From Candidatus Thorarchaeota archaeon (GTDB lineage: Archaea; Asgardarchaeota; Thorarchaeia; Thorarchaeales; Thorarchaeaceae): DNA of 33,560 bases. The DNA lies in assembly GCA_046482545.1 (NCBI GenBank), contig JAWOEX010000031.1, positions 1-33,560 on the forward strand. Reading direction: 5' to 3'. Positions 2,008 to 33,288 of the stretch are shown here, piece after piece. A model generated the notes under the pieces. It had not been told where the DNA came from. It searched no databases and saw nothing but the letters and a program-made list of their open reading frames with translations. A program made the translations under genes and the position numbers. The stretch's first letter is position 1. Every line of letters begins with the position of its first letter.

Positions 2008-3528
2008 ATGAGCGAGATTGTAGCTGCCATTGACGCCGGAACATCTGGAGTTCGATCAGTTCTCTTTCGTACCGACGGCAAAGAAATCCATAGGGAATAT
2101 GAGGAGTTTGAAAGCATCTACCCACGACCGTCATGGGTTGAGCAGGATGCTGATGACTGGTGGAACGCAGCATCATCCACACTGAAGGCATGCATAGACA
2201 AGTCTCGTATCAGTGCTGAGAAAATAACCGGAGTCGCTGTTACAAACCAGCGAGAAACAATAGTTCCCGTTGATGAGTCTGGTAATCCCTTACGTAATGC
2301 CATTGTCTGGCAGGACCGTAGAACGGGGCCTCAGTGTGAGCAACTTCGCGACAAGCTTTCTGAAAGGAAGATCTATTCGATAACTGGTCTATCGGTGGAC
2401 CCCTACTTTTCTGCACCAAAGATTCTCTATCTCAAAGAGCATGAACCCGAGACATTCTCCAAAGCATACAAATTTCTCTTGGTTCATGATTTCATTGTTA
2501 ACCGGCTTTGCGGTTCCATGGTAACAGACTTCTCCAATGCGAGTAGAACCATGCTTTTTGATATTGAGGCTGCAGAGTGGTCTGAGGAGATTCTTAATAC
2601 ACTTGAAATCTCACCCGGAATGCTCCCCCGGCCTATAGAATCAGGTACGGTGGTTGGCGAGGTAATGGACGAAGCTTCGAAGCAGACCGGTTTGCGTGTT
2701 GGTACTCCTGTCGTTGCAGGCGGTGGAGATCAGCAATGTGCCGCATTAGGAGTCGGAGTGGTGAGAGAAGGTCGAACAAAGGCAACCACAGGCACTGGTA
2801 CTTTCATGCTGGCCCATGTGGACGTTCCGAAGTTTGACCCAGAGCGGAGGGTTCTCTGCAGTCGACATGTTGTTCCTGATGCGTTTGTAGTTGAGGCCAG
2901 CATGTTCACAACTGGTGCCGCTCTACGTTGGTTCAGAGATAATTTGGGATACGAAGAACGTGTGACGGCTGAGGAAGTGGAACTCGACCCGTATGATATC
3001 ATCACGGAAGAAGCATCCCAAGTACCGGCAGGTTCGGAGGGTATTATCCATATTCCCCACTTCACTGGTGCTGGTGCCCCTCATTGGAATCCTGATGCTC
3101 GAGCTATGTTTGCTGGTATGGCCTTGGGACACAGCAAAGAACACTTAATCCGAGCAATCTTGGAAGGTGTCTCATATGAACTGCGAAGCAATCAGGAGGT
3201 AATGCGGACTCTTGGCATACCGATATCCGAACTGAGGGTAACAGGCGGAGCTGCAAGAAGTGACATCTGGATGCAGATACAGAGCGATGTCTTGGGAATA
3301 CCCGTTATTCGTACTGAGCTGGAGGAGGCAACCTCCCTTGGGGCTGCAATACTTGCTTGCCGTGGGGTTGGCATATTCGATTCAATATCTGAGGCGGCTG
3401 AAGAGATGGTTCAACCTTTGGAACCTCTACAACCAAGAACAGAGAACCAGGAAATTTACGACCGGGGGTTCCGTCGGTTCAAGAGTCTCTACAGTGCAGT
3501 TTCGAAGATTAAATATGATGCCGACTAG
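2008..3528 (+). CDS. FGGY-family carbohydrate kinase (xylulokinase/glycerol kinase/gluconokinase-like)
   Basis: IDAGTSG, WVEQD, TNQRET, IVWQDRRT, DFSNASRT, GGGDQQ, TGTGTF, RAILEGV, GGAARSDIWMQ motifs. Confidence 0.93.
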   Translation: MSEIVAAIDAGTSGVRSVLFRTDGKEIHREYEEFESIYPRPSWVEQDADDWWNAASSTLKACIDKSRISAEKITGVAVTNQRETIVPVDESGNPLRNAIVWQDRRTGPQCEQLRDKLSERKIYSITGLSVDPYFSAPKILYLKEHEPETFSKAYKFLLVHDFIVNRLCGSMVTDFSNASRTMLFDIEAAEWSEEILNTLEISPGMLPRPIESGTVVGEVMDEASKQTGLRVGTPVVAGGGDQQCAALGVGVVREGRTKATTGTGTFMLAHVDVPKFDPERRVLCSRHVVPDAFVVEASMFTTGAALRWFRDNLGYEERVTAEEVELDPYDIITEEASQVPAGSEGIIHIPHFTGAGAPHWNPDARAMFAGMALGHSKEHLIRAILEGVSYELRSNQEVMRTLGIPISELRVTGGAARSDIWMQIQSDVLGIPVIRTELEEATSLGAAILACRGVGIFDSISEAAEEMVQPLEPLQPRTENQEIYDRGFRRFKSLYSAVSKIKYDAD

Positions 3529-4808
3529 CCCTTATACACGGCCAGTTTGTTGCCTTTGTTCAGTGCCATGATTCTGCAATCAGGGTTCTCCGAAAGCCAT
3601 TCATCAATGACCTCTTGCGGATTGCCCACATTCTCAAGATGTGCTGATTGTACCTGCTCCTCATCTAACTCGGTAAACATGCGTACCCTTACCTCCTGAA
3701 GGAGCTTGGCGAACTTGTAGGCTTTGTGTTCATAGAGGTGATAGTTAGTGCTTATCGATTTGAGAACCTCATCTAGAGGAGCGGTCAGCTTGTTGTAGAA
3801 ATTATCCATTGCTTCCTTTGGAGCTACACCATCTCGGCATTCAGCCAGAAACAGTATTTCTCCACCATCTTTGACGGCATTCTTTGTCAGCTCAAGTCCA
3901 CGTTGGGCATGATAGAGACTCTTGTCTTGCGGATACCCGCCCGGTGACACTATGATTTTGTCGGTCGGAGATACCGTGAAGCTTGTCGTTTCATCCAGAA
4001 CCTCTATTCCGTTCATTATCACTGGTTCCAGTTTTCCTGCTTCTGCCCACACTAGTCCTTCGCTACTCGATATAACCGACAAAGTGAACACTTCTGCTTC
4101 CTCGGTAATCATCTCATATGCCTCTTTCATGTCATCGGCAAGAGGATTGTCACGGCGTTCTGGGTTTGGATGAAACGGATGCCTACCAAATGTAGACTTT
4201 GGGTGCACAGCCATGGAATGGTTAGCTTCTACGCTTTCGAAAGCACAAATGCCCGGGAGGAAATCTTTCACTGCACTGGAATAGCCCGCGAAATAATGCG
4301 CTTTCATATCTGCCAACGCCACATACAGATCATGATTTGCAGCATCAGAATTGATAACCACTGGTGTTCTCCTACTTGTCTCTCCTACCACTATCATGGG
4401 ATCCTCATGGCAGTCGTGTATGCTAACGCTGTAATCCTGAATTTTGGCTTCTTTTGCTACTGCTTTCACGTGTTCTACAATCTTTAGGTTCTCAGGGTGT
4501 TCCACTTCGTGTGAACCTGTTGCTATTATGAAGGTGACACTGCGAGCATCGCTCAAAAATGGAGCAACTGCACGGAGCAGTTCTTTGTGCGGCTCATCTC
4601 TGGTGTGGTCCTCAACCAAAACACAGACACTACTGTTTTGGGCCAATTCATCAAGCAGGGGTCCATGTGGATTGTACAGTGCTCCCTTCAGTTCAGCAGA
4701 TATATCCTCAGCTGTTTCGGTTTCGCTTGGTTCAATAAGGCCAGCGAAATTTTCCTCTGGGATATTGAGCGTAAGTTTGCGCTTTCCGTAGTTCAGTGAT
4801 ACTTTCAT
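3525..4808 (-). CDS. LarA-family nickel-pincer-dependent racemase/epimerase (DUF2088)
   Basis: EDHTR, ATGSH, HYFAGYSSAVKDFLPG, NHSM, SPGGYPQD, GGEILFLAECRDG; stop codon overlaps the FGGY stop tail-to-tail by 4 bp. Confidence 0.9.
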   Translation of the reverse strand: MKVSLNYGKRKLTLNIPEENFAGLIEPSETETAEDISAELKGALYNPHGPLLDELAQNSSVCVLVEDHTRDEPHKELLRAVAPFLSDARSVTFIIATGSHEVEHPENLKIVEHVKAVAKEAKIQDYSVSIHDCHEDPMIVVGETSRRTPVVINSDAANHDLYVALADMKAHYFAGYSSAVKDFLPGICAFESVEANHSMAVHPKSTFGRHPFHPNPERRDNPLADDMKEAYEMITEEAEVFTLSVISSSEGLVWAEAGKLEPVIMNGIEVLDETTSFTVSPTDKIIVSPGGYPQDKSLYHAQRGLELTKNAVKDGGEILFLAECRDGVAPKEAMDNFYNKLTAPLDEVLKSISTNYHLYEHKAYKFAKLLQEVRVRMFTELDEEQVQSAHLENVGNPQEVIDEWLSENPDCRIMALNKGNKLAVYKG

Positions 4809-6287: not shown

Positions 6288-8603
6288 CTACTCTTTTGGC
6301 AATCCTTGATAGAGTGCTATCAATTCATCTTGGCTCTTGTAATTGGGCTCTTGGTCTCTACCGATTCTTTGCTTGTTATCCCACACACCTCGTGCTAGAA
6401 GGTCGGCAATTTTTGCTCTGCCCTCCACGTTCTGAACCGCTTGCTTGTCCCCAATTTTTTGGAATACCTGAACTGCGTCAGAATATTCTCCCACTGCATT
6501 TCTTAGCTGGTCACTAGCATCTGCATAGAATCGTTTTGCTTCCCTTGAATCGCCCATTTTTGATGAAATTTCCGCCACGAAGTCATTCTTGGCAGCCTTG
6601 ATTCTGGCCAGGTCACCATTGAGTTTCATGACGACCCCGCGGAGCTGCTGCACCTGTATCTTGACATTGTTCTTTTCGCGAATCTGCCTATCTTTAACAT
6701 CATCCAATTCACTTACAGCCACCTCAAACGCAGCTTTGGCGCATCTGATTCTGTTCAATGTCACATCATGTGATTTTATGCCTTTTTCAAGAATGTGTTC
6801 CTTCTTCAGTTCTGCAATCTCGTCTTCAATCTCTCCTGACAGATTGATTCTGTGCAATTGCGTTTTGAAGGCGAGCTGTTCTGACTGTTTAGAATAGATT
6901 TGAGCTTCTGAAGCATATGCTGTTGCTATAGCAAGTCTACCGCGATCCATCAGTTCCGCGGCCACATCTTGTTCACCAATGAGTTTGTAATATGATGCGG
7001 CCTCTTCTGCATGCAAATTCTCAAGAATCCTCGATTGTATGAATCGAAGCCCACCTTCAAGTTGAGAACTCAAGCTGAACTGAATTAAGTATTTGATGTG
7101 TCCGAGAAATGCAAGCGTCTTGTTCCTAAGGGTTCTCACTTCCTTATCTTCATCTTCTAGATTCAGCAGTATGCCCAAAATCACTAACCCCTCACGAATC
7201 TCTTCTAAGGCATCTGCAGGGTTCTTTTTCATCTGCACACTTGCTTCATCCAAATGCTTGTTCACATCTTGAATCAAGCCGGTTCTTCTCAAGTCCTTGG
7301 CAAACTTGATGTGTTCTACAATGTTCTTCAAATTCTTTTCTTGCTTTCCTAGCAAATCCTCAACAAAAGAGAATGTACGAAGATTCTCTTGTATTGCTGC
7401 CGTCAGCTCGCGTCTCATGGAGAGTTTCTCAGCCTTTTGCAGATCTCTGAAAATATCCTTCAAAATCTTCACCGATCCCTCACGATTATCTACGGTCAAC
7501 AAATCGGAAAGGGTTTTCACATTATTTTCAGTACGGCAAAATAGAGATTGGGCCTTTCGATGCTTTTTGTCTTTCTGTGATTGTTTGGCATTGTTATACA
7601 ACTTGGGTACTTCTTTGAAACACTTCTCAGCTCGCCCAAAAGCCTCAGAAGACTTCATATAAAGCTTTGACGCGTCTTCCAGATTTCCATTCCGCATCTG
7701 GGCATCAGCGATGTCGTTGTAAATCATCGCGAAATAAACTTCGCTCAGTCCGGCCGTGTTCTTCTTCCAATCTTTCAGCTTATCAATCTCATATTCTTCT
7801 TTGTTTTCCACATCCTGCAGAAGCGGCATGACCTCATTATACAGCTCTGTTGCCTCTTCAAAAATAAACGAACTTAGCAAGTCTCTCCAAAGGAGTTCAT
7901 CAAAGGGATTGAAAGCTTGTCTGAAGGTACTCTCCTTCCCAATCAACTCATTGAGAAATTCATCATAGAATTCTGCCTCGCTGATTTTGGTATTGGCAAT
8001 GATGCGGGATTTTCCATGGTTTTCACCCTTGGCTTTCTTCTGAAGACTGTGAGCCTTGTCACCGAGAGCCACACTTCTCAGTTTCTGTGTTCCATCAACT
8101 TTTGAGGGAACAGCTGAGAATGGCTTCTCCAGTAGTGTATAAATATCCGCCATCAACAGTAATGCCTTTCTCTTGCTATCTTGATTTGTCTCCGCTACAA
8201 AAGGGCTCGAAGCTGCTGCTGATTGATGCATCCAAGCTAAGACCTTAGACATCCATATTTCTGCGAGTTGGGATTTTTCTTGTTGTACCAAATCCTCAAG
8301 CGCCGCCTGCATTTGTTCCTTGACCTCGGGATGAGCCTGTCCGATTGCTTTTCTGAGGAATTCCGTGTCAAAGGATTCAGCTATGACCTCTTGTCCAAAG
8401 CGGGCCATCTCCTGATAGAGATTAGTGAACGCGTTATGCATCTGAATGCGTTTGTGTTCAACCCCCTCTATGTCATCGATATCATGTAGGATGAAATCTC
8501 GTACAGCGTCCTGGATTTCAAGATTCAATTCAAAGAAAATGTTAGAATATACCGTAACATCACTGTCTTGGTTATTCTTGGAACTTGACGAAGAGTGATT
8601 CAT
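6288..8603 (-). CDS. Large all-alpha (TPR/SNAP-like solenoid) protein of unknown function (771 aa)
   Basis: Long ORF rich in A/E/K/L/Q with helical-hairpin patterns such as ADAQMRNGNLEDASKLYMKSSEAF and AEISSKMGDSREAKRFYADAS; GAGGT SD-like sequence upstream. Confidence 0.8.
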   Translation of the reverse strand: MNHSSSSSKNNQDSDVTVYSNIFFELNLEIQDAVRDFILHDIDDIEGVEHKRIQMHNAFTNLYQEMARFGQEVIAESFDTEFLRKAIGQAHPEVKEQMQAALEDLVQQEKSQLAEIWMSKVLAWMHQSAAASSPFVAETNQDSKRKALLLMADIYTLLEKPFSAVPSKVDGTQKLRSVALGDKAHSLQKKAKGENHGKSRIIANTKISEAEFYDEFLNELIGKESTFRQAFNPFDELLWRDLLSSFIFEEATELYNEVMPLLQDVENKEEYEIDKLKDWKKNTAGLSEVYFAMIYNDIADAQMRNGNLEDASKLYMKSSEAFGRAEKCFKEVPKLYNNAKQSQKDKKHRKAQSLFCRTENNVKTLSDLLTVDNREGSVKILKDIFRDLQKAEKLSMRRELTAAIQENLRTFSFVEDLLGKQEKNLKNIVEHIKFAKDLRRTGLIQDVNKHLDEASVQMKKNPADALEEIREGLVILGILLNLEDEDKEVRTLRNKTLAFLGHIKYLIQFSLSSQLEGGLRFIQSRILENLHAEEAASYYKLIGEQDVAAELMDRGRLAIATAYASEAQIYSKQSEQLAFKTQLHRINLSGEIEDEIAELKKEHILEKGIKSHDVTLNRIRCAKAAFEVAVSELDDVKDRQIREKNNVKIQVQQLRGVVMKLNGDLARIKAAKNDFVAEISSKMGDSREAKRFYADASDQLRNAVGEYSDAVQVFQKIGDKQAVQNVEGRAKIADLLARGVWDNKQRIGRDQEPNYKSQDELIALYQGLPKE

Positions 8604-11437: not shown

Positions 11438-12490
11438 TCAGTACATCTCCCTTGGGGACGCGCTAGCATAAGCGACAGCAGAAAGTGCAGCGAATATGAT
11501 AAAGGCCAACCATATGACCAGAGTCACAACCAATAGGTCCGTCTTGAAAAAAATCTCAACAATGAGAAACACACCGACAACAAGGATATTCCCTGGCCCT
11601 CCAAGTGTTTGCTCCTCACCAACATCCAGTCTCCATTTGATGAGTGTCATAATTCCAACTATCCCCATTGATATCCAGTTTATGTACTGCTTGAACAACC
11701 AAGACATGTCAAGAAAAGGTATTGTCCCCAATGAGGTGGGAATCGGAGGTAGATACAGCAGGAGAAAGAGCAAGTAAAGGAGGGTTTCGCCTACACGGAT
11801 TTTGTTTGTTGGGGTGCGGATGTAGCTCCGACCGTATACCCCCTTATCATATTCATTTGCTGCGAAGTAGATGAAATGAAATGGTGAGCCGAAACTAAGG
11901 ACATTAACAAGGCATTGAGCTATACCATACACAACTCCGAACCAGAAACTGCTCCATGCACCGAGGATGGCTTCCCAGACCTCCAAGTATCTTGGGGCAA
12001 AGAGCATGAATACGTGGATGGGTAATATCGATAGTAAGATACCTAGGATTATTGCAACAAGTTTGGCTAGCCCCCCTCCCCCCAGCTTTCCTTTTGCAAC
12101 CTTGTAGATGACTTCGGCGGCAACAAGCAACCCACCTACAACTGCTAAGGGGGCAGCTACCATTGGAAAAATAAAAAACATCAGTACGAAGGCGGCATTC
12201 ATACCGTAGAAGATGCGCCATCTAAGCGGGACAGATGTGGTTGTTTCGTGCATCATGTGAATGGTATTGGCGAGCCGATATCTGTTGAAATAGAGAAATG
12301 ATACCCATGGTGTGCAGAAGAGAGCAGGAACAAGCAAATGATGAAACAACCAGCTCAGAAGGGGGTTCGGAAGTGGCTGTAACTGAAATGGCAGGACGAA
12401 CATGAGGAGGAAGAAGTAGACGGGTAGGAAGATTCCCATTGCTGCCACCGTGACCCGGGTTTTCAGCCAGTCTGGAGACACTTCATCCAC
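11438..12490 (-). CDS. Multi-pass membrane protein of unknown function (350 aa)
   Basis: About 9 hydrophobic segments; GTG start; divergent from pyrF. Confidence 0.78.
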   Translation of the reverse strand: MDEVSPDWLKTRVTVAAMGIFLPVYFFLLMFVLPFQLQPLPNPLLSWLFHHLLVPALFCTPWVSFLYFNRYRLANTIHMMHETTTSVPLRWRIFYGMNAAFVLMFFIFPMVAAPLAVVGGLLVAAEVIYKVAKGKLGGGGLAKLVAIILGILLSILPIHVFMLFAPRYLEVWEAILGAWSSFWFGVVYGIAQCLVNVLSFGSPFHFIYFAANEYDKGVYGRSYIRTPTNKIRVGETLLYLLFLLLYLPPIPTSLGTIPFLDMSWLFKQYINWISMGIVGIMTLIKWRLDVGEEQTLGGPGNILVVGVFLIVEIFFKTDLLVVTLVIWLAFIIFAALSAVAYASASPREMY

Positions 12491-13563: not shown

Positions 13564-14835
13564 ATGGATAATAAGGAAGGCTTTGGTTTTGCGGCATGGA
13601 CTGAATTCATTCCTGCCAGCCAGATTCGGACGCTTCTCAAGTACGATGTAGAATACTACTTCGCAGGTGGAAAGCCGGGTATCATTCCAACTGATACCTT
13701 TGCGAAGATTCTCCAAGAACTTGGCAAAGAGTACTCCGAGAAGCCCAGGCTGGCATTGGAAGACCTGAACTACGGAACCACAGGTGGACAGAAGTGGTTC
13801 CGACAGACTCTCGCAAGGAGGCTCTGTGACAAGAGAGATATCAATATTGACTGCGAGAGCGAATGGGAGAGCGTATCAATAACAACTGGCTCACAACAGG
13901 CACTATATGCCTTGCTGGATATTCTTATCGACCCGGGCGATGTCATCATCACTCCTTCACCGGCATACCTTGGTTTCCTTGGTCCAGCGGTCAAATTAGG
14001 AGCACGAGTAATCACCGTGCCAACTGATTTGGATGGTATCATTCCCGAATACGTGGAGAAGGCCATAAATCTCTCGAACGCGAAGTTTGGTAAGAATCCT
14101 GACATAGTTTACGTAGTTCCTGATTCTGATAACCCCAAGGGCACTACCTTGCCAATGAAACGAAGGCAGGAACTCTTTGACATCTGTGAGAACCACAATA
14201 TCATCCTCTTGGAGGACTCAGCATACGCTGAGATTCAGTTCAAGGAAACACATTTGAAGCCTATCAAGAGCTTTGACAAGGACAACAATCGAGTCGCATA
14301 TCTTGGTACCACAAGCAAGGAAGCAGCAGTTCTACGAGTCGGTTATTCAGTGATGCCTGACTCTGTGAGAGATCAAGTTCTCAAATCCAAGGGCTATCTT
14401 GACTTGTGTACATCCACTTTAATCCAGCGTATACTTGATGTATACTATCGTGAGTACATTGATGACGTGCTGGAAGAGGGAGTCAAGGGATACAGGAAAC
14501 GCTATGAGGCCATGGCCGAAGCTATTGATGAATCATTTCCGCCTGGAAAGCGCACAGATCCTACAGGTGGCTTTTTCATTTGGTGGCAGAGTGAAGAGGA
14601 ATTTGATGCGCGCGACTTCCTGAAAGAGGTTGCGATTCCAGCCGATGTTCTATATGTACCAGGAACTGCATTCTATCCAATCACCGGATACAGCCTAGGA
14701 AATGACCAGGATGAATTGGTACGGAGCAAGCCTGAACATAACACGATGAGGCTTGGATACTCTTACGCCGAGCCAGAGGTGATATCTACGGGAATTCGAA
14801 GACTTGGCGATTTGCTAAGTGAGCACCTTCAGTAG
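13564..14835 (+). CDS. PLP-dependent aminotransferase class I/II (2-aminoadipate/aromatic aminotransferase, LysN/MocR-like)
   Basis: FAGGKP, ITTGSQQAL, NPKGTT, EDSAY, GTTSK (PLP lysine), LRVGY, GGFFIW, MRLGYS. Confidence 0.93.
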   Translation: MDNKEGFGFAAWTEFIPASQIRTLLKYDVEYYFAGGKPGIIPTDTFAKILQELGKEYSEKPRLALEDLNYGTTGGQKWFRQTLARRLCDKRDINIDCESEWESVSITTGSQQALYALLDILIDPGDVIITPSPAYLGFLGPAVKLGARVITVPTDLDGIIPEYVEKAINLSNAKFGKNPDIVYVVPDSDNPKGTTLPMKRRQELFDICENHNIILLEDSAYAEIQFKETHLKPIKSFDKDNNRVAYLGTTSKEAAVLRVGYSVMPDSVRDQVLKSKGYLDLCTSTLIQRILDVYYREYIDDVLEEGVKGYRKRYEAMAEAIDESFPPGKRTDPTGGFFIWWQSEEEFDARDFLKEVAIPADVLYVPGTAFYPITGYSLGNDQDELVRSKPEHNTMRLGYSYAEPEVISTGIRRLGDLLSEHLQ

Positions 14836-14844
14836 TACACTCAT

Positions 14845-14875
14845 GGTGCCGGGGACAATCCCGGTGCCTTTCTCA
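14845..14875. terminator. GC-rich hairpin between convergent aminotransferase and bshC genes
   Basis: GGTGCCGGG-gacaat-CCCGGTGCC: 9-bp stem with 2 G-U pairs on the + strand, followed by pyrimidines. Confidence 0.45.
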
Positions 14876-14876
14876 T

Positions 14877-16592
14877 TTATACCATGAAGTTGACAAACAG
14901 AGTCGAGCCATTTTTCAGTTCAGGAACGTAGGCTCGTTCGTATGGCCCGAACAAATCGGTGAAACCTGAGTTAATAACCCACTCTATCCACGACCATGTA
15001 GCCTCCTGTCCAATTTTTCCCTTGGTGTACTGACCATATACCCAGCTGAGATATCGTTCCATTTCAAGGCGGGTTATCTGAAGCTGTTGGTTGTTCTTGC
15101 CGCTTGCTTTTTTTCGTTCCTTTTCCAACTGCTCAATGCCTTGGTTGATTTTCTTATGAGAACTATGCAAAAGGGACCTGAAATCTTGTGCTGCGCTGTT
15201 CATTTCAGAATAGTCTTCTGATTGACGGGCCCTCGTAATGCGCCCGATGGTATTGAACATGTCACCTCCATGGAGTGTAGGTTTGTCCTTTTGCTTCAGT
15301 GTTCTTGACAGACCCTCAGCCCATGGCGTATTGAAGTAGACACGAGGATACTTCAGGAATGACGGGAATGGAACTCCAAGTTCTTCTGCTACCGGGATGA
15401 CCTGCGCGTAGTAGGCAGTCTCACCTCCCCCTCCAATGTGAACTACGATTGGTAAAATCGTATCAATGACGAACTGCCTTGAATCAACTCTGGGTGATAT
15501 ATTCTCAGCAATTTCGCTCAAGTCTGGTTTCTCTGCATCAAATTCCAGTTTAACAGGCCTTCCACAAGATGGACATCGTCCTGTGAGAATTGCTCTTGCG
15601 CCTTCTTGCCTGTAATGCATTTCAACTCTGCTAGAATGACATCCCTTTTCCTGACACTCGTAGAAAAAGGGGACATAATCAGGCGACCTTTCGCCTGCTC
15701 CCGTATCGAATCCATTTTCCTCGATAAGTCTTGTTGCACGTGTCTGGGCTTCAACAAACTTCTTCCGGTTTTGAGCAGCGAGAAGATACTCAAAACCCTC
15801 AGTCATGAGCTTTCTTATCTCAGGATTGGATGAGGGAAGCACAGGCAGTCCGAGATCACCTTCTACGTTGAGTAGTCTTCCAATGATTCTCTGGGCCCAT
15901 TCTCCAAGAGTTTCCGAGTTGTAGAATGACCATCGAGTAACTGCAAGGGCCGCTTCAAGGCGTTCTTCCAACAACTTGGTGCCTGTACCTGATAGGGGTT
16001 TGAACAAATCATTGTAGTTCTTGCGGATACTATTCTCAACTTCGGAATACCATGTGGAATCAGGGAGCGGCAATATACTTACCGGAGAATGTTCATATCC
16101 TTCGGGTACTGGCAGGCTGATTAGATTGCCTGATTGTCCCATAAGAGGGGTCCTAATATTGACAAGCTCGGCTTGAACCTCATCATAATCGCCTACAAAG
16201 AAGAACGCCGACAGGTTGTTTTCTTTCGAGAAGCTTGATACTATCTTCGCTGAGGCCGCCTTGTTCAGGATGTAACATGGCCCTCCCATCACCACACTTT
16301 GATGAGCAGCTTCAACTGCTCCATTTGATAGATTGTCAATGCTATCTTCGACAGCGGGTGTCAGGCAACCTAATCTTGAATTCGTTTCAAGAAGCACGGA
16401 CTTGAGGGAGTCAAGTCGTTTCTCTGGGACAAAGTTGGTTTCCTGATATGCCTCAAGAATTCTAGGTGCCCGTTGAGCAGCTTCACCCATTGTCTGCGGT
16501 GGATTGCCATACAAAAAATCCGCCAAGTCTTTTTTCTCTGATTTCCATATGTAGTCGTAATAGATTTTAGTCGCAATTGGTGTCAACGCCAC
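14877..16592 (-). CDS. bshC: Bacillithiol biosynthesis cysteine-adding enzyme BshC homolog
   Basis: AAHQSVVMGGPCYILNKAASA (cf. TGQQ..L..GP.Y...KA), GDYDE (cf. EDHD), ISPRVDSR (cf. SPNV..R), ILPIVVHIGGGGETAYYAQ (cf. LP...IGGPGE.AY.AQ); 9 bp downstream of bshA with GGAGTG SD. Confidence 0.88.
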   Translation of the reverse strand: MALTPIATKIYYDYIWKSEKKDLADFLYGNPPQTMGEAAQRAPRILEAYQETNFVPEKRLDSLKSVLLETNSRLGCLTPAVEDSIDNLSNGAVEAAHQSVVMGGPCYILNKAASAKIVSSFSKENNLSAFFFVGDYDEVQAELVNIRTPLMGQSGNLISLPVPEGYEHSPVSILPLPDSTWYSEVENSIRKNYNDLFKPLSGTGTKLLEERLEAALAVTRWSFYNSETLGEWAQRIIGRLLNVEGDLGLPVLPSSNPEIRKLMTEGFEYLLAAQNRKKFVEAQTRATRLIEENGFDTGAGERSPDYVPFFYECQEKGCHSSRVEMHYRQEGARAILTGRCPSCGRPVKLEFDAEKPDLSEIAENISPRVDSRQFVIDTILPIVVHIGGGGETAYYAQVIPVAEELGVPFPSFLKYPRVYFNTPWAEGLSRTLKQKDKPTLHGGDMFNTIGRITRARQSEDYSEMNSAAQDFRSLLHSSHKKINQGIEQLEKERKKASGKNNQQLQITRLEMERYLSWVYGQYTKGKIGQEATWSWIEWVINSGFTDLFGPYERAYVPELKNGSTLFVNFMV

Positions 16593-16601
16593 TACACTCC
16601 A

Positions 16602-17762
16602 CTACTCTAGTATCGATTCGAGCATGTTTTCATAAATTGGAACGATTCTTTCTGCAGAGAAATCCTCTTCTACCCGCTTTCGGGCAGCCTTGCCCATTTT
16701 TTCACGAAGGCTCCTATCAGCTACCAGTTGAATAATAGTATTGGCATATTCTTCCTGTTCGAATCCCTCTGTCACCATTCCATCTTTCCCCTTTCTAACG
16801 AGTTCAGGAATACCTCCTGCAGGAGTTGTTACTACCGGTACTCCACTGGACATGGCCTCAAGGAGAACAAGTGGCATTCCTTCCATGGTTGAATTCTGTA
16901 GAAAGATATCTGCGGCCGACATTATCTGGTTCATATTACTTCTGATTCCCAAAAGATGGACGTTGTGGCAGAGATCAAGTTCCTCAATTTTCCTTTCGAC
17001 CTCAGTCCGGGCTGGTCCATCGCCCACTATTACGAGTCTAGTGTTAGGATGATGATCGACCACCTTCCGCATTATTTCAATGAGCTGAGGAACCCGCTTG
17101 ACTTTCCTGAAGTTTGAGGCATGTAGTAAAACCAACTCGTCCGGTTTTATCTCCGTTGCGTCCTCTTCGCGTCTAACCGAAACACAACCGCTCTTGACCA
17201 CTAGCCTGAAACCCTCGCTAGGAGCGAATCGGTCAGTATCTATGAAATTGGGGATTACTCTGATGTCTCGTTCTATGCCAAGCCCCTCATGTGCTTCTCT
17301 TCTCAAGAAATCCGAGACAGAATTCACAGCGTTAGCATTCTCTACTGTGTGCTCAACTACAGGACGATATGCAGGATCTTGACCCAATGTGTGCACATCT
17401 GAACCGTGAAGGGTCACTGCATATGGAATATCAATAATTTCGCGGGCCATGTATGCAGCCATAGCATGGGGAATTGCATAATGGCAATGTATCAACTCGA
17501 GGTTCGAATCTCTTGCCACTTTCACTATTTTGGATGTTAAGGCCATTGCATAAGGTGGACCGATAGCTTCGAAGAGAGGATAATCAAATCTATCAACCAG
17601 ATCTACGTAGACGCTTCCTGCTTCTTCCCACATTAGGGCGAACGGCTCTTCATATGTGATGAAATGCACTTCGTGCCCTCTATCGGCTAGATGCTGTCCT
17701 AGCCGAGTTCCAAGATAGCCCGAACCACCGACGGTCGGATAAAGACAGACTCCAATTCTCAT
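16602..17762 (-). CDS. bshA: N-acetyl-alpha-D-glucosaminyl L-malate synthase BshA (GT4 glycosyltransferase)
   Basis: MRIG..YPTVGGSG, RGHEVHFITY, YPLF..PPY, HCHYAIPHA, TLHGSD, NFID, HASNFRKVKRV, LVLLEAM, GGIPE: BshA-specific signatures. Confidence 0.92.
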   Translation of the reverse strand: MRIGVCLYPTVGGSGYLGTRLGQHLADRGHEVHFITYEEPFALMWEEAGSVYVDLVDRFDYPLFEAIGPPYAMALTSKIVKVARDSNLELIHCHYAIPHAMAAYMAREIIDIPYAVTLHGSDVHTLGQDPAYRPVVEHTVENANAVNSVSDFLRREAHEGLGIERDIRVIPNFIDTDRFAPSEGFRLVVKSGCVSVRREEDATEIKPDELVLLHASNFRKVKRVPQLIEIMRKVVDHHPNTRLVIVGDGPARTEVERKIEELDLCHNVHLLGIRSNMNQIMSAADIFLQNSTMEGMPLVLLEAMSSGVPVVTTPAGGIPELVRKGKDGMVTEGFEQEEYANTIIQLVADRSLREKMGKAARKRVEEDFSAERIVPIYENMLESILE

Positions 17763-17866
17763 CAACATTGACCCAAGGTACAAACCTCTGAATGACCTTT
17801 AAGCAAACTGGTTTAGCATTCAAGCTCTGGCAAACCTTGATTAACAAGTTAAAGGAATTCTAATCT

Positions 17867-18535
17867 ATGACCCAACATTCTGACCCTTCAATTCTTGCCG
17901 TCGTTGCGCATCCGGATGACGAGTGCTTGGGAGCAGGAGGAACTATCTCTGTTCATACTCGGCGAGGATTTCCGGTTGATGTCCTATGCATGACTGGAAC
18001 CGAAGAGCGCAATGAGGAACTCAAATCGGCATGTTCCACGCTAGGGGTTCGACATGTCCTGACGAACATACGAGATGATTTTGACATCAAGCTTTCTATG
18101 AAGGATGAAGTTGCTGATGCCATACTTAGGACGAAGCCGACAATTATCATCACGCACTCCGAACGGGATTACAATGATACTCATGTCACATGCTCACAAG
18201 TAGTTGATCAGGCTGCTGAATGGGCTTCGCACAAGACCATATTCGATAACGCCCACAGAGTTAGGCGAATTCTCAATATGGAAATAAATTCGCTGATTGC
18301 AATCCCTAATCTGGTAATGGATATCTCTGAGGGCTATGAATCCGCAATGAAGGCATTACGGCAGCATGAATCACAAATCGGGAAGGCGGAAGGATATTAC
18401 GAGAAACTCTACGACTACAGAACAAAGCTACGTGGTCTTCAAGGTGGATGTAGTAGAGGCGAAGCATTCACAGTCAAGAGTCCGATACAGGCAGGCCCCT
18501 TCTACCCCGAAAATAGCGTTAAGACCCTGCTCTGA
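17867..18535 (+). CDS. bshB: PIG-L/LmbE-family deacetylase, probable BshB (GlcNAc-malate deacetylase)
   Basis: AHPDDE..G.GGT zinc motif, R..E...A...LG, P.IIITH, DIS, AL..H.SQ, R..L.G...G...EAF; divergent from bshA. Confidence 0.8.
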   Translation: MTQHSDPSILAVVAHPDDECLGAGGTISVHTRRGFPVDVLCMTGTEERNEELKSACSTLGVRHVLTNIRDDFDIKLSMKDEVADAILRTKPTIIITHSERDYNDTHVTCSQVVDQAAEWASHKTIFDNAHRVRRILNMEINSLIAIPNLVMDISEGYESAMKALRQHESQIGKAEGYYEKLYDYRTKLRGLQGGCSRGEAFTVKSPIQAGPFYPENSVKTLL

Positions 18536-18559: not shown

Positions 18560-18994
18560 TCATTCACCCTGATCTATTTTCTTTCTTCTTGCAGCAAGCA
18601 ATCCTTTGAGTTCACCCATTAGTCCCCCTCGTCCGCCACCTGGAGGCCCTGACGAAGGTTCAGTTTCTGCTGAGGCCGTTGCAGGTTCTGCTTCAGCAGG
18701 TGCCCCTGCTGGAGGTGCGGAGGGAGCTGGTGCTTCTGCATCGTCTCCAGAGGACGGGCTTGCTACACCGCCGCTAGAAATCCTGCTATCCATACTATTA
18801 ACTTTGGATTCAAGATTTCCGATTCTCTTTTCCATTCCGTCAATAGTTACCTGAAGCTCTCCTATAGCATCCACTAGCTTTTTCGTTATTGCATTAACTA
18901 CTTCTCCCAACCCTCTTAGCTTCTCTTCAGTGGGGTCTTTCAGCGCCCATTCAAATTCCTCGGCTATGAAATCATCGTCGTTTTCTTCTGCCAT
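18560..18994 (-). CDS. Coiled-coil / Pro-Ala-rich protein with C-terminal Ena/VASP FAB- or WH2-like motif
   Basis: Heptad coiled coil, then low-complexity APAPSAPPAGAPA linker, then PPGGGRGGLMGELKGLLAARRKKID; co-oriented downstream of glmM; start 18994 or 19012. Confidence 0.75.
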   Translation of the reverse strand: MAEENDDDFIAEEFEWALKDPTEEKLRGLGEVVNAITKKLVDAIGELQVTIDGMEKRIGNLESKVNSMDSRISSGGVASPSSGDDAEAPAPSAPPAGAPAEAEPATASAETEPSSGPPGGGRGGLMGELKGLLAARRKKIDQGE

Positions 18995-19083
18995 AAGCAG
19001 CGGCCCCTTCATCCAGTTTGATGTAAAGTGTTTGTGCTATAAAGCTTCTTTGCATAATGGTTTTCACATAGGTCACCATTAAT

Positions 19084-20460
19084 CTATGTGTCCTCTACAG
19101 TTTCACTTACAATATCTTTGGCTTTGGCAAGCAGGCTGTTGACTCTATCTTCTGAGAACGCTTCACAGGTCACTCTGATTACCGGTTCTGTCCCTGAGGG
19201 CCTTACTAAAATCCAGCCATCATCAAGGAACAAACCAATACCATCCACCTTCACTATCTCCCGTATTTTGCCTAGATTCTGGGGGAGAAGGTCTTGTAAC
19301 TTCTTCATGACTCCTGCTTTCATGCTATTATCACAATGCACTTTCCCTTTTGTAAGTGGATACTCTGGAATCTCAGATATGAGCTCAGCAAAGCTTTGCT
19401 TCTTCTCTGCGATTAATTCTAGAATCATACAGGATGCCAAAAACGGTTCTGGAGCAAGGTGAAACCATGGAAGTATGTAGACTCCACAAGCCTCCCCTCC
19501 AATGGCAGCTCTCGCCTCTTTGATTTTCAGGGCGACCTCAATATCGCCTACGGGGGTTCTAATCGTGTTTCCTCCTGCTTTTTCTACTGTTTCATCAAGA
19601 ACTAAGGAGCTATCGACGGTTGTCACGACAGTTTTGTTCTCAGACCGCTTGATCATTTCTCTTGCGAGTAATGCAATCACCCTGTCGCCGCGGATAAACT
19701 CTCCTTTACTTGTCACAAAGGTAACCCTGTCAGCATCCCCATCATGAGCAATCCCGATGTCAGCTTGAGCCTCTTTGGTGATGTTTATCAAATCACTGAG
19801 GTTCTCTTCTTCAGGTTCTGATGGCCTTCCTGGGAAATGGCCGTCGAGTTGCGCGTTGAGAGTGATTACCTTACATCCTAGCTTTCTCAGAAGATATGGT
19901 GTCATTACACAGGCAGCACCATTTCCAGGGTCTACTGCTATCTTGAATCTCTGCTCGGCGATGGCTTTTGAGTTGACTTGGTCCAAGATAGCCTCAATAT
20001 GTGTTCTAACATCAACATCTGATACTGATTCTGTCCCCAGCCGATCCCACGAGGCAATCTGAAACTCTCCTGTCTCATAGATTGCTTCGAGCTCGCGCTC
20101 TTCTTCCTTGGTATAGCCCATACTATCTGCACGCCAGAATTTGATTCCAGTATACTCTGGCGGATTGTGGGAAGCTGTTACCATAACTCCAGTATCAAAG
20201 CCTCTTACCATAGTATTGTATGCCAAAGTAGGAGTAGGAATAATACCTGCTCTTACAACATTGACACCTGTCGACATCACTCCTGAGGAGAATGCATCAG
20301 CAATCATGCTTCCCGTCGTTCTAGCATCTCTTGCTAGTAATATTGTTCCTTTATCCAGATATGTTCCAAGTGCCTTACCAAGTTCTAATGCCATGATCGG
20401 GTCAAATTCGGAACCGTACACCTTCCGAACGCCTGTTGTCCCAAAGAGATTACCAGTCAT
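19084..20460 (-). CDS. glmM: Phosphoglucosamine mutase / phosphohexomutase
   Basis: LFGTTGVR, TASHNP (phospho-Ser), DGDADR metal loop, GGE, RPSGTEP; substrate (GlcN vs Man/Glc) not resolvable from motifs. Confidence 0.9.
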   Translation of the reverse strand: MTGNLFGTTGVRKVYGSEFDPIMALELGKALGTYLDKGTILLARDARTTGSMIADAFSSGVMSTGVNVVRAGIIPTPTLAYNTMVRGFDTGVMVTASHNPPEYTGIKFWRADSMGYTKEEERELEAIYETGEFQIASWDRLGTESVSDVDVRTHIEAILDQVNSKAIAEQRFKIAVDPGNGAACVMTPYLLRKLGCKVITLNAQLDGHFPGRPSEPEEENLSDLINITKEAQADIGIAHDGDADRVTFVTSKGEFIRGDRVIALLAREMIKRSENKTVVTTVDSSLVLDETVEKAGGNTIRTPVGDIEVALKIKEARAAIGGEACGVYILPWFHLAPEPFLASCMILELIAEKKQSFAELISEIPEYPLTKGKVHCDNSMKAGVMKKLQDLLPQNLGKIREIVKVDGIGLFLDDGWILVRPSGTEPVIRVTCEAFSEDRVNSLLAKAKDIVSETVEDT

Positions 20461-22951: not shown

Positions 22952-23500
22952 ATGAGCTCATCGTACGACTACCTCTTCAAAGTGGTAATTCTTGGCGAAG
23001 GAGCCGTGGGAAAAACAGCGATCGTGACCCGCTTCAGCCACGGATTCTTCCGAACTGACTATAAAACAACAATTGGTTCTCAGTTTGCGGTGAAGAATGT
23101 ATCTATCCCTTCTTCGCATGGTGACAATCTAGAGGTAAAGTTGCAGATCTGGGACGTTGCAGGCCAATCCCGTTTTCAGATTCTCCGTCCGATGTACTAT
23201 CGTGGAGCCAGCGGTGGTGTACTTGTCTTTGATGTTACTCGCCGTCGCACTTTCATTGTTTTGGAAGAATGGCTGGAAGAGCTGGAAAACGCTATCAACA
23301 AGAAAATCCCCCTTGTTCTTGTCGGCAACAAAATCGATTTGCCTGATAGGGTGGTTAACCCGAAGGAAGGTCACGAATTTGCCGAAGCCCACGGTATGCC
23401 ATATATCGAATCGTCTGCAAAGACAGGTGAGAGCATCGTGGACATTTTTGAGGAGCTAGCAAAGGTACTGGTCAACCAACGAAAGGGCAGCACATTCTAA
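22952..23500 (+). CDS. Rab-like small GTPase (Ras superfamily; Asgard eukaryotic signature protein)
   Basis: G1 GEGAVGKT, G2 TTIG, G3 WDVAGQ, G4 GNKID, G5 SSAK; YDYLFKVV N-terminus; KLQIW, YYRGA and LVFDVT Rab-family motifs; no C-terminal Cys motif. Confidence 0.96.
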   Translation: MSSSYDYLFKVVILGEGAVGKTAIVTRFSHGFFRTDYKTTIGSQFAVKNVSIPSSHGDNLEVKLQIWDVAGQSRFQILRPMYYRGASGGVLVFDVTRRRTFIVLEEWLEELENAINKKIPLVLVGNKIDLPDRVVNPKEGHEFAEAHGMPYIESSAKTGESIVDIFEELAKVLVNQRKGSTF

Positions 23501-23591
23501 CCCTATATGCAGGTCACCTAATTTCGTCATGTTGTTTGTTTTTGTGCAAAACCGAACTCATATCAAGGCATACATTTCCTCTAAATCTATC

Positions 23592-24173
23592 ATGACTGAT
23601 CCTGACCAAATGTACGCTGTGAATATTCTTCCAGCTTTGGCCTATGCCTTTGATGTCTATTCCAAAACGGATGCTCCCTACAAGGATTCGGGTGCAGTAG
23701 AGATGGTTCTTCAGGCTGGAGAGCACAAAAAACTCCTTGAGAAGAAAGGAGAGCACCAAGTGATTGTATGGTTTGCAGATGGGAAGATATTTGCCAGAGC
23801 CAGATGCACGTACGAGAAGGAATGTGACTTCAACAAGCCGCGGGTGAGCGCCAAGGACCGTGAAGGTTTGAAGACTCTACCCTGGGATAAGACCAACGAA
23901 AAGCGATTTTTCATTCTCACTTCGAAGTGGCTCATGAAACTCGGTTATGATTATTCCACACTAATCAAGGCGCTTGTTGCGGTTTGTGACAAGAAAGTAC
24001 AAACCCCGCTCACTACCAAGTACGATAAGACCTTCAACAAATTCAACGAATACCGGAAGACCCAATGGCCTGATGATGTTGATTTGAGTGACAAACAACG
24101 CTTTCTGGAGGAGGTGCTCGTGAGAGTCTCATTCTGGTTCAAGGCAGCTGCAGAAGTGGATGCGCTAAAATGA
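23592..24173 (+). CDS. Hypothetical soluble protein (about 193 aa)
   Basis: Lys-rich ORF co-oriented after the GTPase; start 23592 or 23529. Confidence 0.72.
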   Translation: MTDPDQMYAVNILPALAYAFDVYSKTDAPYKDSGAVEMVLQAGEHKKLLEKKGEHQVIVWFADGKIFARARCTYEKECDFNKPRVSAKDREGLKTLPWDKTNEKRFFILTSKWLMKLGYDYSTLIKALVAVCDKKVQTPLTTKYDKTFNKFNEYRKTQWPDDVDLSDKQRFLEEVLVRVSFWFKAAAEVDALK

Positions 24174-30286: not shown

Positions 30287-31018
30287 TTGATTGTACTATT
30301 ATCTGATTTCGGTGGCTCACAATATGCAGGAATGATGAAAGGAGTAATTCATACGATTTGCACACAAGCTGAGATTGTGGATTTTACGCATGACATAAGG
30401 CCACATTCCGTACGCGAAGGTGCATGGGTGCTACTCAATGGGTATCACTATTTTCCGCCCCGATCGATTTTTGTCTGTGTTGTCGACCCTGGCGTCGGTA
30501 CTGAGCGTGATGCCGTTTTTGTCAAAACAACGAACTATGTGTTCATTGGTCCAGATAATGGGTTAATGTATCCTGCAGCCCATCATGATATCATTACCCA
30601 AATCTTTCCTATCATTGTTGAAGATGTGCCATCCAGTACATTTCATGGCCGAGACATCTTCGCAAAAATGGGCGCCTATCTGGAAAAGGGGCTCGCTGGC
30701 CGCCACTTAGGCCCACTCAAGGATGATTTCAGCGTTCCCCTCGAATTCTATCTTGAGGGGCGAACAGGGGAAGTAACTCAAATTGACCACTTCGGCAATG
30801 TGGTGACGAACCTACTGCCCGGCGAGAAGAAAGATATGAGGGTCACTGCTGACGGTGTAGACGAGGAAATGAAGTGGGTGCGGACTTTTGAAGAGGGCCC
30901 AGATGATGACCTCTTCCTTGTTACTGGAAGCTGCAACACATTGGAAATCTGTGCGAAGCGTGACAGCGCGTCGGACTCAATTGACTTGGAAGTTGGAGAT
31001 CGGCTTACCATAGAATGA
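30287..31018 (+). CDS. SAM hydroxide adenosyltransferase (chlorinase/fluorinase family, DUF62)
   Basis: LLSDFG, MKGVI, THDI, VVDPGVGT.R, GPDNG, STFHGRDIF, IDHFGNV.TN. Confidence 0.94.
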   Translation: MIVLLSDFGGSQYAGMMKGVIHTICTQAEIVDFTHDIRPHSVREGAWVLLNGYHYFPPRSIFVCVVDPGVGTERDAVFVKTTNYVFIGPDNGLMYPAAHHDIITQIFPIIVEDVPSSTFHGRDIFAKMGAYLEKGLAGRHLGPLKDDFSVPLEFYLEGRTGEVTQIDHFGNVVTNLLPGEKKDMRVTADGVDEEMKWVRTFEEGPDDDLFLVTGSCNTLEICAKRDSASDSIDLEVGDRLTIE

Positions 31019-31212: not shown

Positions 31213-31788
31213 ATGACATTTGATTTTGCTAAAGGCATACAAGAATTCCGCTGGCACGGCAGAGGTGGTCAGGGGGTAGTAACCTCCAACCAGATGCTTG
31301 GAAAAGCAGCTCTGGAAGAAGGTAACTACATTCAGGCCTTTCCGGAATTTGGTCCGGAGCGTACTGGCGCGCCTGTGAGAGCATATTTACGAATTAGTGA
31401 GAAACCCATCCAGATTTACGCTCAAGTATACACACCTAGTGCTGTGGTCTGCATCGATCCGACTCTTCTACAGGTTCTGAATCCCACAGAGGGTTTAGAT
31501 GAAGATGGCACCCTTGTTTTGAACACAGATATGAACCCGGCAGAAGTACGGGACAGATTCGATTTTAGAAAGGGTACTGTAACCACTGTTGATGCAAGCA
31601 CAATTGCTATGGATATCATGGGCCGTCCATTTTACAACATGCCTACGATGGCAGCAGCGATACAGGCTACTGGTGTAGTCAAACTTGAGACTGCGATTAA
31701 GACGGTTATGGAACGTTATCCAGGAAAGGTGGGCGAACTCAACAAGGCTGCAATGGAAAGGGCGGTTGAGGAGGCTGAAACGGAATGA
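31213..31788 (+). CDS. porG: 2-oxoacid (pyruvate):ferredoxin oxidoreductase gamma subunit
   Basis: EFRWHGRGGQGVVT, FGPERTGAPV; GAGGTGA SD at 31203-31209. Confidence 0.95.
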   Translation: MTFDFAKGIQEFRWHGRGGQGVVTSNQMLGKAALEEGNYIQAFPEFGPERTGAPVRAYLRISEKPIQIYAQVYTPSAVVCIDPTLLQVLNPTEGLDEDGTLVLNTDMNPAEVRDRFDFRKGTVTTVDASTIAMDIMGRPFYNMPTMAAAIQATGVVKLETAIKTVMERYPGKVGELNKAAMERAVEEAETE

Positions 31789-32081
31789 GCGAGAAATATG
31801 ACGAAATACCTATGGCAGGAATTGTAGTTCGACCAGGCAATGCGAAAGAATACAAGACTGGTGGTTGGAGAGCCGAGCGACCTGTTCACATTCCGGAGAA
31901 GTGTCTCTGGGTGAAGAACGGTACCTGTGGTCTCTGCTGGATATTCTGTCCAGATGATGCCATCCGCCTTGAGGAACAAGATGGTGAATATGTCCACATC
32001 TATGATTATGACTACTGCAAGGGCTGTGGTATCTGTGCAGAACAATGCCCAGTTGATGCGATAAAGATGGAGAGTGAGTAG
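31785..32081 (+). CDS. porD: 2-oxoacid (pyruvate):ferredoxin oxidoreductase delta subunit (2x[4Fe-4S])
   Basis: KTGGWR, C...CGLCWIFCPD, YDYCKGCGICAEQCP; ATGA overlap with the gamma gene. Confidence 0.95.
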   Translation: MSEKYDEIPMAGIVVRPGNAKEYKTGGWRAERPVHIPEKCLWVKNGTCGLCWIFCPDDAIRLEEQDGEYVHIYDYDYCKGCGICAEQCPVDAIKMESE

Positions 32082-33288
32082 AGTGGCAAGTGTTAAGAGA
32101 ATACCTGATAATCAGATTACGATCGAAGGTCTTACTGGTGATTCAGCAATTGCTCAGGCGCTGAAGCAGTGTGACCTCGATGTTCTCGCTGCATATCCAA
32201 TCACACCTCAGACCATCATCGTAGAAGACTTCCAGAAGTTTGTTGCGAATGGCGAGGTTAATACACGAGTCATTCCGGTTGAATCAGAACATAGCGCTAT
32301 GTCCGCATGTATTGGCGCTTCTTCAGTGGGTGGCAGAGTGGGAACAGCTACCGCATCTGCCGGCTTGGCGCTGATGTGGGAGATACTCTACTGTGCAGCA
32401 TCAATGAGGATGCCTATCGTGCTGAATGTTGCAAACCGAGCTTTGTCGGCTCCCATCAACATCCATAACGACTGGAGCGACAGCTATGGAGCCCGTGACA
32501 GCGGTTTCATTCAGATATACACGAAGAGCTGTCAGGAAGCCTACGATACGACAATTATGGCTTTCAAGCTTGCAGAGGATCACGGTGTGCTTCTACCTGC
32601 AATGGTGTGCATTGATGGGTTCATTCTGAGCCACAATGTGGAGCGTGTGGAGATGCTGCCAACTGAGGCTGTTCATGATTTTCTTGGTACAAGAGAACCA
32701 GTTCTACCACTAGATCCAGACGACCCAATCACAATGGGGCCTCTGGCTTTGACCGACTATTACTTCGAGTTCAAGGAACAGCAGGATGAAGCCATGAAGA
32801 ATGTCCCCAAGGTGTTCAAGAAGGTTGAAGAAGAATTTGAAGAAATGACGGGGCGTTCTTACGGCATGTTCGAGGAATATCGGACCGAGGATGCCGATAT
32901 CGTCATCTTCACTCACAGCACAACTGGCGGTACCGCTAGGGCTGTTGTAGATACTCTCCGAGAGAAGGGTGAAAAAGTGGGTATGCTTCGACTACGGATG
33001 TTCAGGCCATTCCCAACCGAAGAAATTCGAGAAATCCTAACTGGTGCGCAGGCGGTAGCGGTATTTGAGAAGTGTCGTTCGTTCGGTGCGCCGAGCAATC
33101 CTCTGGCTCTTGAAGTGAGGACAGCGCTCTATGACCTCGACGAGAGGCCGATGGTTTGTGACTTCGTTGTCGGATTGGGCGGGCGAGATGTACCACCAAC
33201 CACTATTGTTGAGGGACTGCGAAAGACAGAGGAGTATCTGGAAAAAGGTGAGGCTCCACTTTATGAAACACTGGGGGTGCGTAAGTAA
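32074..33288 (+). CDS. porA: 2-oxoacid (pyruvate):ferredoxin oxidoreductase alpha subunit
   Basis: AYPITPQT, VESEHSA, NRALSAPINIH.D, DGFILSH, FRPFP, GLGGRD. Confidence 0.95.
   Translation: MSRVASVKRIPDNQITIEGLTGDSAIAQALKQCDLDVLAAYPITPQTIIVEDFQKFVANGEVNTRVIPVESEHSAMSACIGASSVGGRVGTATASAGLALMWEILYCAASMRMPIVLNVANRALSAPINIHNDWSDSYGARDSGFIQIYTKSCQEAYDTTIMAFKLAEDHGVLLPAMVCIDGFILSHNVERVEMLPTEAVHDFLGTREPVLPLDPDDPITMGPLALTDYYFEFKEQQDEAMKNVPKVFKKVEEEFEEMTGRSYGMFEEYRTEDADIVIFTHSTTGGTARAVVDTLREKGEKVGMLRLRMFRPFPTEEIREILTGAQAVAVFEKCRSFGAPSNPLALEVRTALYDLDERPMVCDFVVGLGGRDVPPTTIVEGLRKTEEYLEKGEAPLYETLGVRK

Follow-up and report, generated by a model that had tools for sequence, protein, structure and literature searches.

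The DNA analysed here is a 33,560-nucleotide stretch that makes up an entire 33.6-kb contig (hereafter, the window) of a 3.05 Mb, 98.9% complete genome from the Thorarchaeota, a lineage of Asgard archaea. It carries side by side three intact open reading frames (ORFs) related to the genes of bacillithiol biosynthesis: a bshC-like gene, bshA and a divergently oriented gene for a PIG-L deacetylase. The bshC-like gene (14877..16592, −) encodes an archaeal-type BshC of 571 amino acids (aa), a putative cysteine-adding ligase with a class I tRNA-synthetase-like fold. The bshA gene (16602..17762, −) encodes a 386-aa glycosyltransferase of family 4 (GT4), a predicted UDP-N-acetylglucosamine (UDP-GlcNAc):L-malate glycosyltransferase. 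The third gene (17867..18535, +) encodes an archaeal-type, BshB-like PIG-L/LmbE deacetylase of 222 aa. The end of bshA (16602) and the GTG start of bshC (16592) are separated by a 9-bp gap, and a GGAG stands just 5′ of the GTG. The start of bshA is most likely the ATG at 17762 or 17768 rather than the TTG at 17783, and the gap to the ATG of the divergent deacetylase gene (17867) is 104 or 98 bp, respectively. A preliminary description of this DNA had reported the same layout, and it was confirmed.

The identity of BshA is the firmest part of the pathway assignment. The protein scores 377 bits against TIGR03999 (cut-off 273.7) over model positions 1–374 of 375, the runner-up family reaches 145 bits, and no other gene of the genome exceeds the cut-off. 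The model of GlcNAc-phosphatidylglycerol synthase gives 72 bits and that of the mycothiol enzyme MshA 72.3 bits (cut-off 462.5). Five PDB matches lie below 1e-20, all of them BshA structures, with a best E-value of 1e-76. In Bacillus anthracis numbering, counted from the alignment to the PDB sequence, H120, N206, R208, K211, E282 and E290 are kept and T122 is replaced by serine; these seven we take to be donor and acceptor site positions. The glycine-rich loop, the HYAIPH, TLHG-D and SNFR-VKR motifs and both glutamates are retained in the alignment of Asgard copies. A quick tree with narrow bacterial sampling places the protein with copies from Hermodarchaeia, Bathyarchaeia and Ranarchaeia (support 0.91), within BshA and apart from other GT4 enzymes, as the preliminary description had supposed. 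Transfer to malate would be the activity expected of a member of this family.

BshC is present in a single copy in the genome and exceeds the gathering cut-off of PF10079 (61.1 vs. 27). A single-sequence search against the PDB found at best the canonical BshC structure 4WBD, with an E-value of 0.77; profile and fold were needed for the identification. A profile of 26 Asgard BshC copies matches 4WBD at E 1e-23. The predicted model (predicted local distance difference test score, pLDDT, 93) aligns to 4WBD with a VIA Z of 31.7, a root-mean-square deviation (rmsd) of 3.0 over 468 aa and a Foldseek E-value of 7e-18, at a structural identity of about 16%. The second-best fold is the class I lysyl-tRNA synthetase (LysRS) 1IRX (VIA Z 20.6, rmsd 3.1 over 300 aa); other synthetases score much lower (Z ≤ 13). 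Unlike 1IRX, BshC has neither a HIGH motif of the usual form nor, in the aligned range, an anticodon-binding domain, and a LysRS candidate is encoded separately in the genome.

Conservation was assessed with 14 canonical and 62 archaeal BshC sequences. Nine positions, including Q98, K111, D137, E142, R322, E391 and Y394, show the same residue in all 62 archaeal and in no fewer than 13 of the 14 canonical sequences, and the canonical GQQ and GGPGE motifs read AHQ and GGGGE. The archaeal protein also has an insertion with Cys313, Cys318, Cys340 and Cys343 that is foreign to canonical BshC (absent from 14/14). C313 and C340 occur in 62/62 archaeal sequences and C343 in 58/62. The insertion is probably a zinc ribbon. 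A motif search did not find the cysteine ribbon in the LysRS candidate of the same genome, and hence a link between the ribbon and LysRS would be conjectural.

In a search of 1.8 billion representatives, full-length members of the archaeal BshC branch were retrieved at E < 1e-126, and the next full-length match was at 8e-41. In the maximum-likelihood tree, canonical BshC stands apart on a long branch (100/100), the archaeal branch has support of 88/79 and each sampled Asgard family forms a clade. The archaeal proteins thus represent a separate deep branch, and no paper describing it was found in the literature searched. The branch is not restricted to Asgard archaea, since it also occurs in Bathyarchaeia, accompanied there by BshA and by a deacetylase of this type. 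An apparent 1236-aa BshC fusion in another genome (G242) proved to be a read-through of an assembly gap. A third BshC-like family was also encountered (36 representatives, P0210–P0268; L099, L100, L143), with an HQPN motif and the same four-cysteine pattern; one copy adjoins a PIG-L gene and another lies amid polysaccharide genes.

The deacetylase is the only PIG-L protein of the genome and exceeds the PF02585 cut-off (68.4 vs. 28.2). Its model is nearest to BshB structures (2IXD, Z 28.3; 6ULL/6P2T, Z 27.6); other LmbE enzymes follow only 2 to 3 Z units below, so the fold alone cannot fix the substrate. The score against the MshB model is 23.4 (cut-off 224.35). The metal motif H15-D17-D18 with H106 is invariant across the aligned archaeal-type deacetylases, as is R48, the counterpart of bacterial Arg53, whose replacement in BshB (R53A) abolishes activity (PMC4101496). 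The role of the protein is best argued from its distribution. The subfamily is single-copy in the six families that have BshA and archaeal-type BshC (73/76, 28/28, 17/19, 11/11, 1/1 and 2/3 genomes); the other families searched yielded no copy. In f18, represented by one BshA-bearing genome, a different PIG-L gene lies beside the BshA–BshC pair. GlcNAc-malate is the putative substrate.

These counts come from 301 Asgard genomes sampled for BshC, BshA and the deacetylase; related genomes are not independent, and the co-occurrence counts describe a pattern rather than a statistical test. Families were named after members of their clusters and after a single scan with one protein; the names of f14, f18, f26, f27 and f29 are loose. 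BshC-like genes occur in over half of the genomes. The version seen in the window, type I, is found in Thorarchaeota, Hermodarchaeia, Heimdallarchaeaceae, three further Heimdallarchaeia-labelled or unnamed families and some Bathyarchaeia. BshC, BshA and the deacetylase type are present in 74, 70 and 73 of the 76 Thorarchaeota-family genomes, in 17, 16 and 17 of the 19 Hermodarchaeia, in 27, 27 and 28 of the 28 Heimdallarchaeaceae and in 11/11 genomes each of f14. The deacetylase gene of the Heimdallarchaeaceae is unlinked and did not form part of the search seed. In Bathyarchaeia the type I trio sits with an amidohydrolase, a thioredoxin-like gene and two DinB-family genes (L096:4291-10518, L113). 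The amidohydrolase did not align with the one 3′ of bshC in Lokiarchaeia. DinB/YfiT proteins include bacillithiol transferases. Several Hermodarchaeia have a gene between bshC and bshA that by eye is nitroreductase-like (L093:7837-8349, L094:7836-8366), possibly a partner in disulfide recycling or detoxification; a close homologue is encoded elsewhere in the Thorarchaeota genome (C4:20301-20807).

A second version, type II, combines the archaeal BshC with no detectable BshA. BshC was found in 19 and BshA in none of the 21 Hodarchaeales genomes, and the same state was seen in 5/68 and 4/7 genomes of two Lokiarchaeia families and in 2/2 of f29. At most six BshA candidates were scored per genome in this family-wide search; when all genes of five genomes were scored, including the closed chromosome of the cultured Promethearchaeum syntrophicum MK-D1, none exceeded the cut-off. 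In MK-D1 the gene order is a family 2 glycosyltransferase (GT2), a PIG-L protein above the BshB1 cut-off, the archaeal BshC and an amidohydrolase (L074:6361-10743; similar in L051 and L052). A profile of the MK-D1-type GT2 matched in 30 genomes, namely the 5 and 4 BshC-bearing Lokiarchaeia, 20 of the 21 Hodarchaeales and one f29 genome, and had no match in the BshA-bearing families. Conversely, 28 of the 30 BshC-positive, BshA-negative genomes have this GT2. The family-level match arises partly by construction, as the profile seed was taken from those families; the genome-level match within the two Lokiarchaeia families does not. The BshC gene, a BshB1-like gene and the GT2 gene, the last in one or two copies, are unlinked in Hodarchaeales (L038–L041, L059, L089–L092, L114–L123), and their partnership is therefore argued from co-occurrence only. 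In four genomes the BshB1-like gene and BshC share a contig, about 40–50 kb apart. One Hodarchaeales genome (G259) has a DinB gene about 2 kb from the GT2. With GT2 in place of BshA, a different thiol is predicted for type II, and the MK-D1 operon is a candidate route to it. No paper on the GT2 version was found in the literature searched.

Type III is a bacterial-type bshC-bshB-bshA operon found in f27 (Heimdallarchaeota-labelled, 10/11 genomes) and in one f20 genome (L076–L081, L086). A BshC copy of this type (L077) scores 380 bits against TIGR03998, above the cut-off of 265.8. The operon is nested among bacterial sequences, which indicates a second, separate acquisition.

The low scores against bacterial BshC and BshB models, and a 2025 RefSeq survey in which no archaeon had the full pathway (PMC12719100), might raise the suspicion that the Thorarchaeota locus is contaminating bacterial DNA, was transferred recently or has decayed to a remnant. 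That survey used Chlorobaculum queries with limits of >25% identity and >80% coverage (PMC12719100); a search of this kind would probably miss the archaeal branch. The BshC homologues at 50–96% identity carry Thorarchaeota or other Asgard labels, many of them named "bacillithiol biosynthesis BshC" by NCBI. The genes are full length, and the gene order is identical in 11 of the 12 Thorarchaeota loci examined, the twelfth having an assembly gap. Composition is normal for the genome (tetranucleotide distance at the 33rd percentile; GC-content 46.2 vs. 45.4%), and the long branch to canonical BshC and the family-level clades speak against recent transfer. The same contig encodes a Ras-family small GTPase (22952-23500, +; PF00071, 170 bits), a typical Asgard gene. 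Contamination or chimerism is no live explanation for the cluster, and the whole group of explanations is largely refuted and carries next to no weight. The contig is archaeal, as the preliminary description had it, and the three-gene set would be a long-standing archaeal resident and not a recent acquisition from bacteria.

Taken together, these data make bacillithiol (Cys-GlcN-malate), serving as a small protective thiol, the probable product of the cluster. In the proposed pathway, BshA, whose family membership is established, would join the GlcNAc of UDP-GlcNAc to L-malate. The zinc deacetylase would then strip the acetyl group, as its fold, metal motif and co-occurrence suggest. The archaeal BshC, to judge from homology, would finally join cysteine to the freed amine at a tRNA-synthetase-like Rossmann site. 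Recycling of the disulfide could fall to the products of generic thioredoxin-reductase-like genes. Genes for substrate supply are present: GlmM, two GlmU, a class I fumarase and cysteinyl-tRNA synthetase (CysRS). No canonical lactate/malate dehydrogenase (PF00056) scored above the cut-off in the genome, and 13 of 14 control genomes have one; malate supply is nevertheless no objection, because the alpha subunit of a class I fumarase is above its cut-off. A thiol product is supported by the thioredoxin-like and DinB genes adjoining the Bathyarchaeia trio and by the search of this 98.9% complete genome for a GCS2-type glutamate-cysteine ligase, which found none. A DinB-family gene is present in the Thorarchaeota genome as well.

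Several observations weigh against this assignment. BshC reaches only 62.4 bits against TIGR03998 (equivalog cut-off 265.8) and keeps 28 of the 54 positions conserved in canonical BshC; EDHD is changed to YDEV, QER to QEA, N368 to R and H562 to G. The deacetylase falls under the cut-offs of BshB1 (TIGR04001, 82.6 vs. 182.5) and BshB2 (TIGR04000, 55.3 vs. 195.25), and the deacetylases of two relatives scored 85 and 100 in this test. Its Arg109 is replaced by Tyr, His110 by Asn and Asp112 by Thr; Hermodarchaeia copies mostly retain His110 and Asp112. In BshB, H110A and R109K strongly lower activity (PMC4101496). In BshA, serine stands for Thr122 in all aligned Asgard copies, and in Thorarchaeota the ESFG motif reads EGMP, GMP replacing SFG after E282. 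The YpdA reductase is not above its cut-off (75 vs. 340 bits) in this genome, and YpdA/Bdr and BrxA/B had no match above cut-off in this and four other Asgard genomes, BrxC and NmbA not having been searched; YpdA/Bdr and BrxA/B are accessory rather than biosynthetic. As of 2018, the BshC reaction had not been reconstituted in vitro, even for bacteria (PMC5790435), and no detection of bacillithiol is on record for any archaeon (PMC7278568). The profile searches proposed in the preliminary description therefore bear out its "complete" cluster in part. BshA is a member of the curated family and the PF10079 match of BshC is significant; TIGR03998 and TIGR04001 are not reached. A complete bacillithiol pathway is an inference, because BshC and the deacetylase are changed at conserved or functionally tested positions.

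The altered BshC positions would also fit the same three steps leading to a different product, in which malate is exchanged for some other organic acid, or cysteine for a different amino acid or sulfur donor. The Arg109 substrate contact is gone from every archaeal-type deacetylase aligned, the YpdA and BrxA/B partners were not found above cut-off, and in Hodarchaeales and some Lokiarchaeia the same BshC branch is paired with an unrelated GT2, so that archaeal BshC may tolerate or prefer other glycosides. On the other hand, BshA is well above the equivalog cut-off, keeps the acceptor-side motifs of its family and falls within the BshA proteins of the tree, apart from other GT4s; a thiol is also indicated by the DinB and thioredoxin-like genes that adjoin the Bathyarchaeia trio. 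Such an analogue is in our estimate rather unlikely. The three-gene set most probably makes either bacillithiol or a close variant of it, in line with what the preliminary description proposed.

The combination of a GT4 enzyme and a PIG-L deacetylase is also the logic of early glycosylphosphatidylinositol (GPI) synthesis. The genes could accordingly modify a lipid or glycan in a GPI-anchor-like manner (GT4 PIG-A, PIG-L), followed by aminoacylation, with no soluble thiol formed. The BshC-like sister family beside polysaccharide genes and the Hodarchaeales bshC loci that by eye appear to lie near lipid-synthesis genes are compatible with this scheme. The GT4, however, is specifically BshA (377 bits, against 145 in the runner-up family and 72 with the model of GlcNAc-phosphatidylglycerol synthase), the deacetylase model is closest to BshB structures, the predicted models are soluble enzyme folds, and no membrane partner accompanies the trio outside Thorarchaeota. 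A lipid or glycan product is thus highly improbable, and bacillithiol remains the preferred product.

The BshA, BshB1/B2 and BshC enzymes of Bacillus subtilis, B. anthracis and Staphylococcus aureus (3MBO/5D00, 2IXD/6P2T and 4WBD) are of the same three types and folds as the proteins of the window. Shared with the bacterial pathway are a full BshA member, the deacetylase metal motif, the nine core BshC positions and a DinB-family gene in the genome. The archaeal version differs in the deacetylase lacking R109, H110 and D112, in its divergent layout and in the accessory genes that were not found. The mycothiol pathway of Actinobacteria (MshA-MshB-MshC) likewise uses a GT4 enzyme, an LmbE deacetylase and a tRNA-synthetase-related ligase to form a cysteinyl-glucosamine. 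The MshA and MshB scores (72 and 23 bits), however, are far under those for the BshA and BshB models, and the ligase has the fold of BshC, not of the CysRS-like MshC.

The idea of an archaeal pathway, of which the preliminary description knew no characterised example, was already in print and in NCBI annotation. A 2020 review by Rawat and Maupin-Furlow listed 39 archaeal InterPro matches each for BshA and BshC, mostly from Asgard archaea, and concluded that archaea may make bacillithiol (PMC7278568). The same genes lead here to the same conclusion, so that the window is a confirmation with a twist; the review covers neither the deacetylase, gene clusters and phylogeny nor the distinct BshC branch and the lineages without BshA (PMC7278568). 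New here is that Hodarchaeales and some Lokiarchaeia, including the cultured P. syntrophicum, carry this BshC and in most cases a GT2, no BshA having been found in them. Low-molecular-weight thiol measurements in Asgard archaea were found in none of the papers searched.

If the assignment is true, bacillithiol-type redox buffering would be widespread and old in Asgard archaea, and the divergent BshC would give an additional, independent perspective on an enzyme for which the 2018 review still had no solved reaction. The version with the GT2 occurs in a cultured strain and in Hodarchaeales and is open to direct thiol profiling. A broader scheme can be put forward only tentatively, as we hold it somewhat less probable than its negation: the archaeal BshC branch would be an old thiol ligase family, giving bacillithiol or a near analogue with BshA and an undescribed cysteinyl-aminosugar thiol with GT2 and a BshB1-like deacetylase, and the ancestors of eukaryotes would have used such a thiol before glutathione. 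The preliminary description had placed the cluster in the lineage closest to eukaryotes. To our knowledge, Thorarchaeota are not the lineage so proposed; Hodarchaeales are, and in them BshA was not found.

The divergent intergenic region (17763..17866) probably holds the promoters of both bshA and the deacetylase gene. By eye, a TTTAAG box near 17798 and a AAACTTGAT-like stretch recur in four relatives, five sequences being compared. A 10-pair hairpin with a T-rich tail (14845..14868, +) is a possible terminator between bshC and a convergent gene; in a promoter and terminator scan of such sites, the hairpin type included, the site count was not above that of shuffled sequences. The convergent gene encodes a class I aminotransferase dependent on pyridoxal phosphate (13564..14835, +) and is tail-to-tail with bshC here and in Hodarchaeales. 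It was rejected as a fourth pathway member: eight families that lack BshC carry it, and in the BshC-bearing f14 and f24 it was not found.

On the other side, an archaeal phosphoglucosamine mutase gene, glmM (19084..20460, −; TIGR03990, Arch_GlmM, 525 vs. 439 bits), lies 548 bp past the deacetylase gene, close to the distance of about 550 bp given in the preliminary description, which left unmentioned a conserved 150-codon ORF in between (18560-19012, −). A role of glmM as a dedicated member of the pathway was rejected. The gene adjoins the cluster only in Thorarchaeota loci, separated by another gene, and is a housekeeping neighbour for the general UDP-GlcNAc supply. The intervening ORF encodes a conserved Thorarchaeota protein with an acidic N-terminus, a coiled coil, a proline-rich linker and a near-invariant basic end helix. 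It matched no Pfam family, and its Atlas clusters are from Asgard archaea. The end helix presumably recalls the actin-binding motif of VASP. Further long ORFs without a Pfam match are 6288-8603 (−), 11438-12490 (−), 449-1486 (−) and 23529-24173 (+), of which 11438-12490 encodes a 350-aa membrane protein syntenic across Thorarchaeota. The window also encodes a LarA-family racemase adjoining an FGGY kinase (3525-4808, −), an S-adenosylmethionine (SAM) hydroxide adenosyltransferase (30287-31018, +) and subunits of a 2-oxoacid:ferredoxin oxidoreductase (31213-33560, +) that extend past the contig end.

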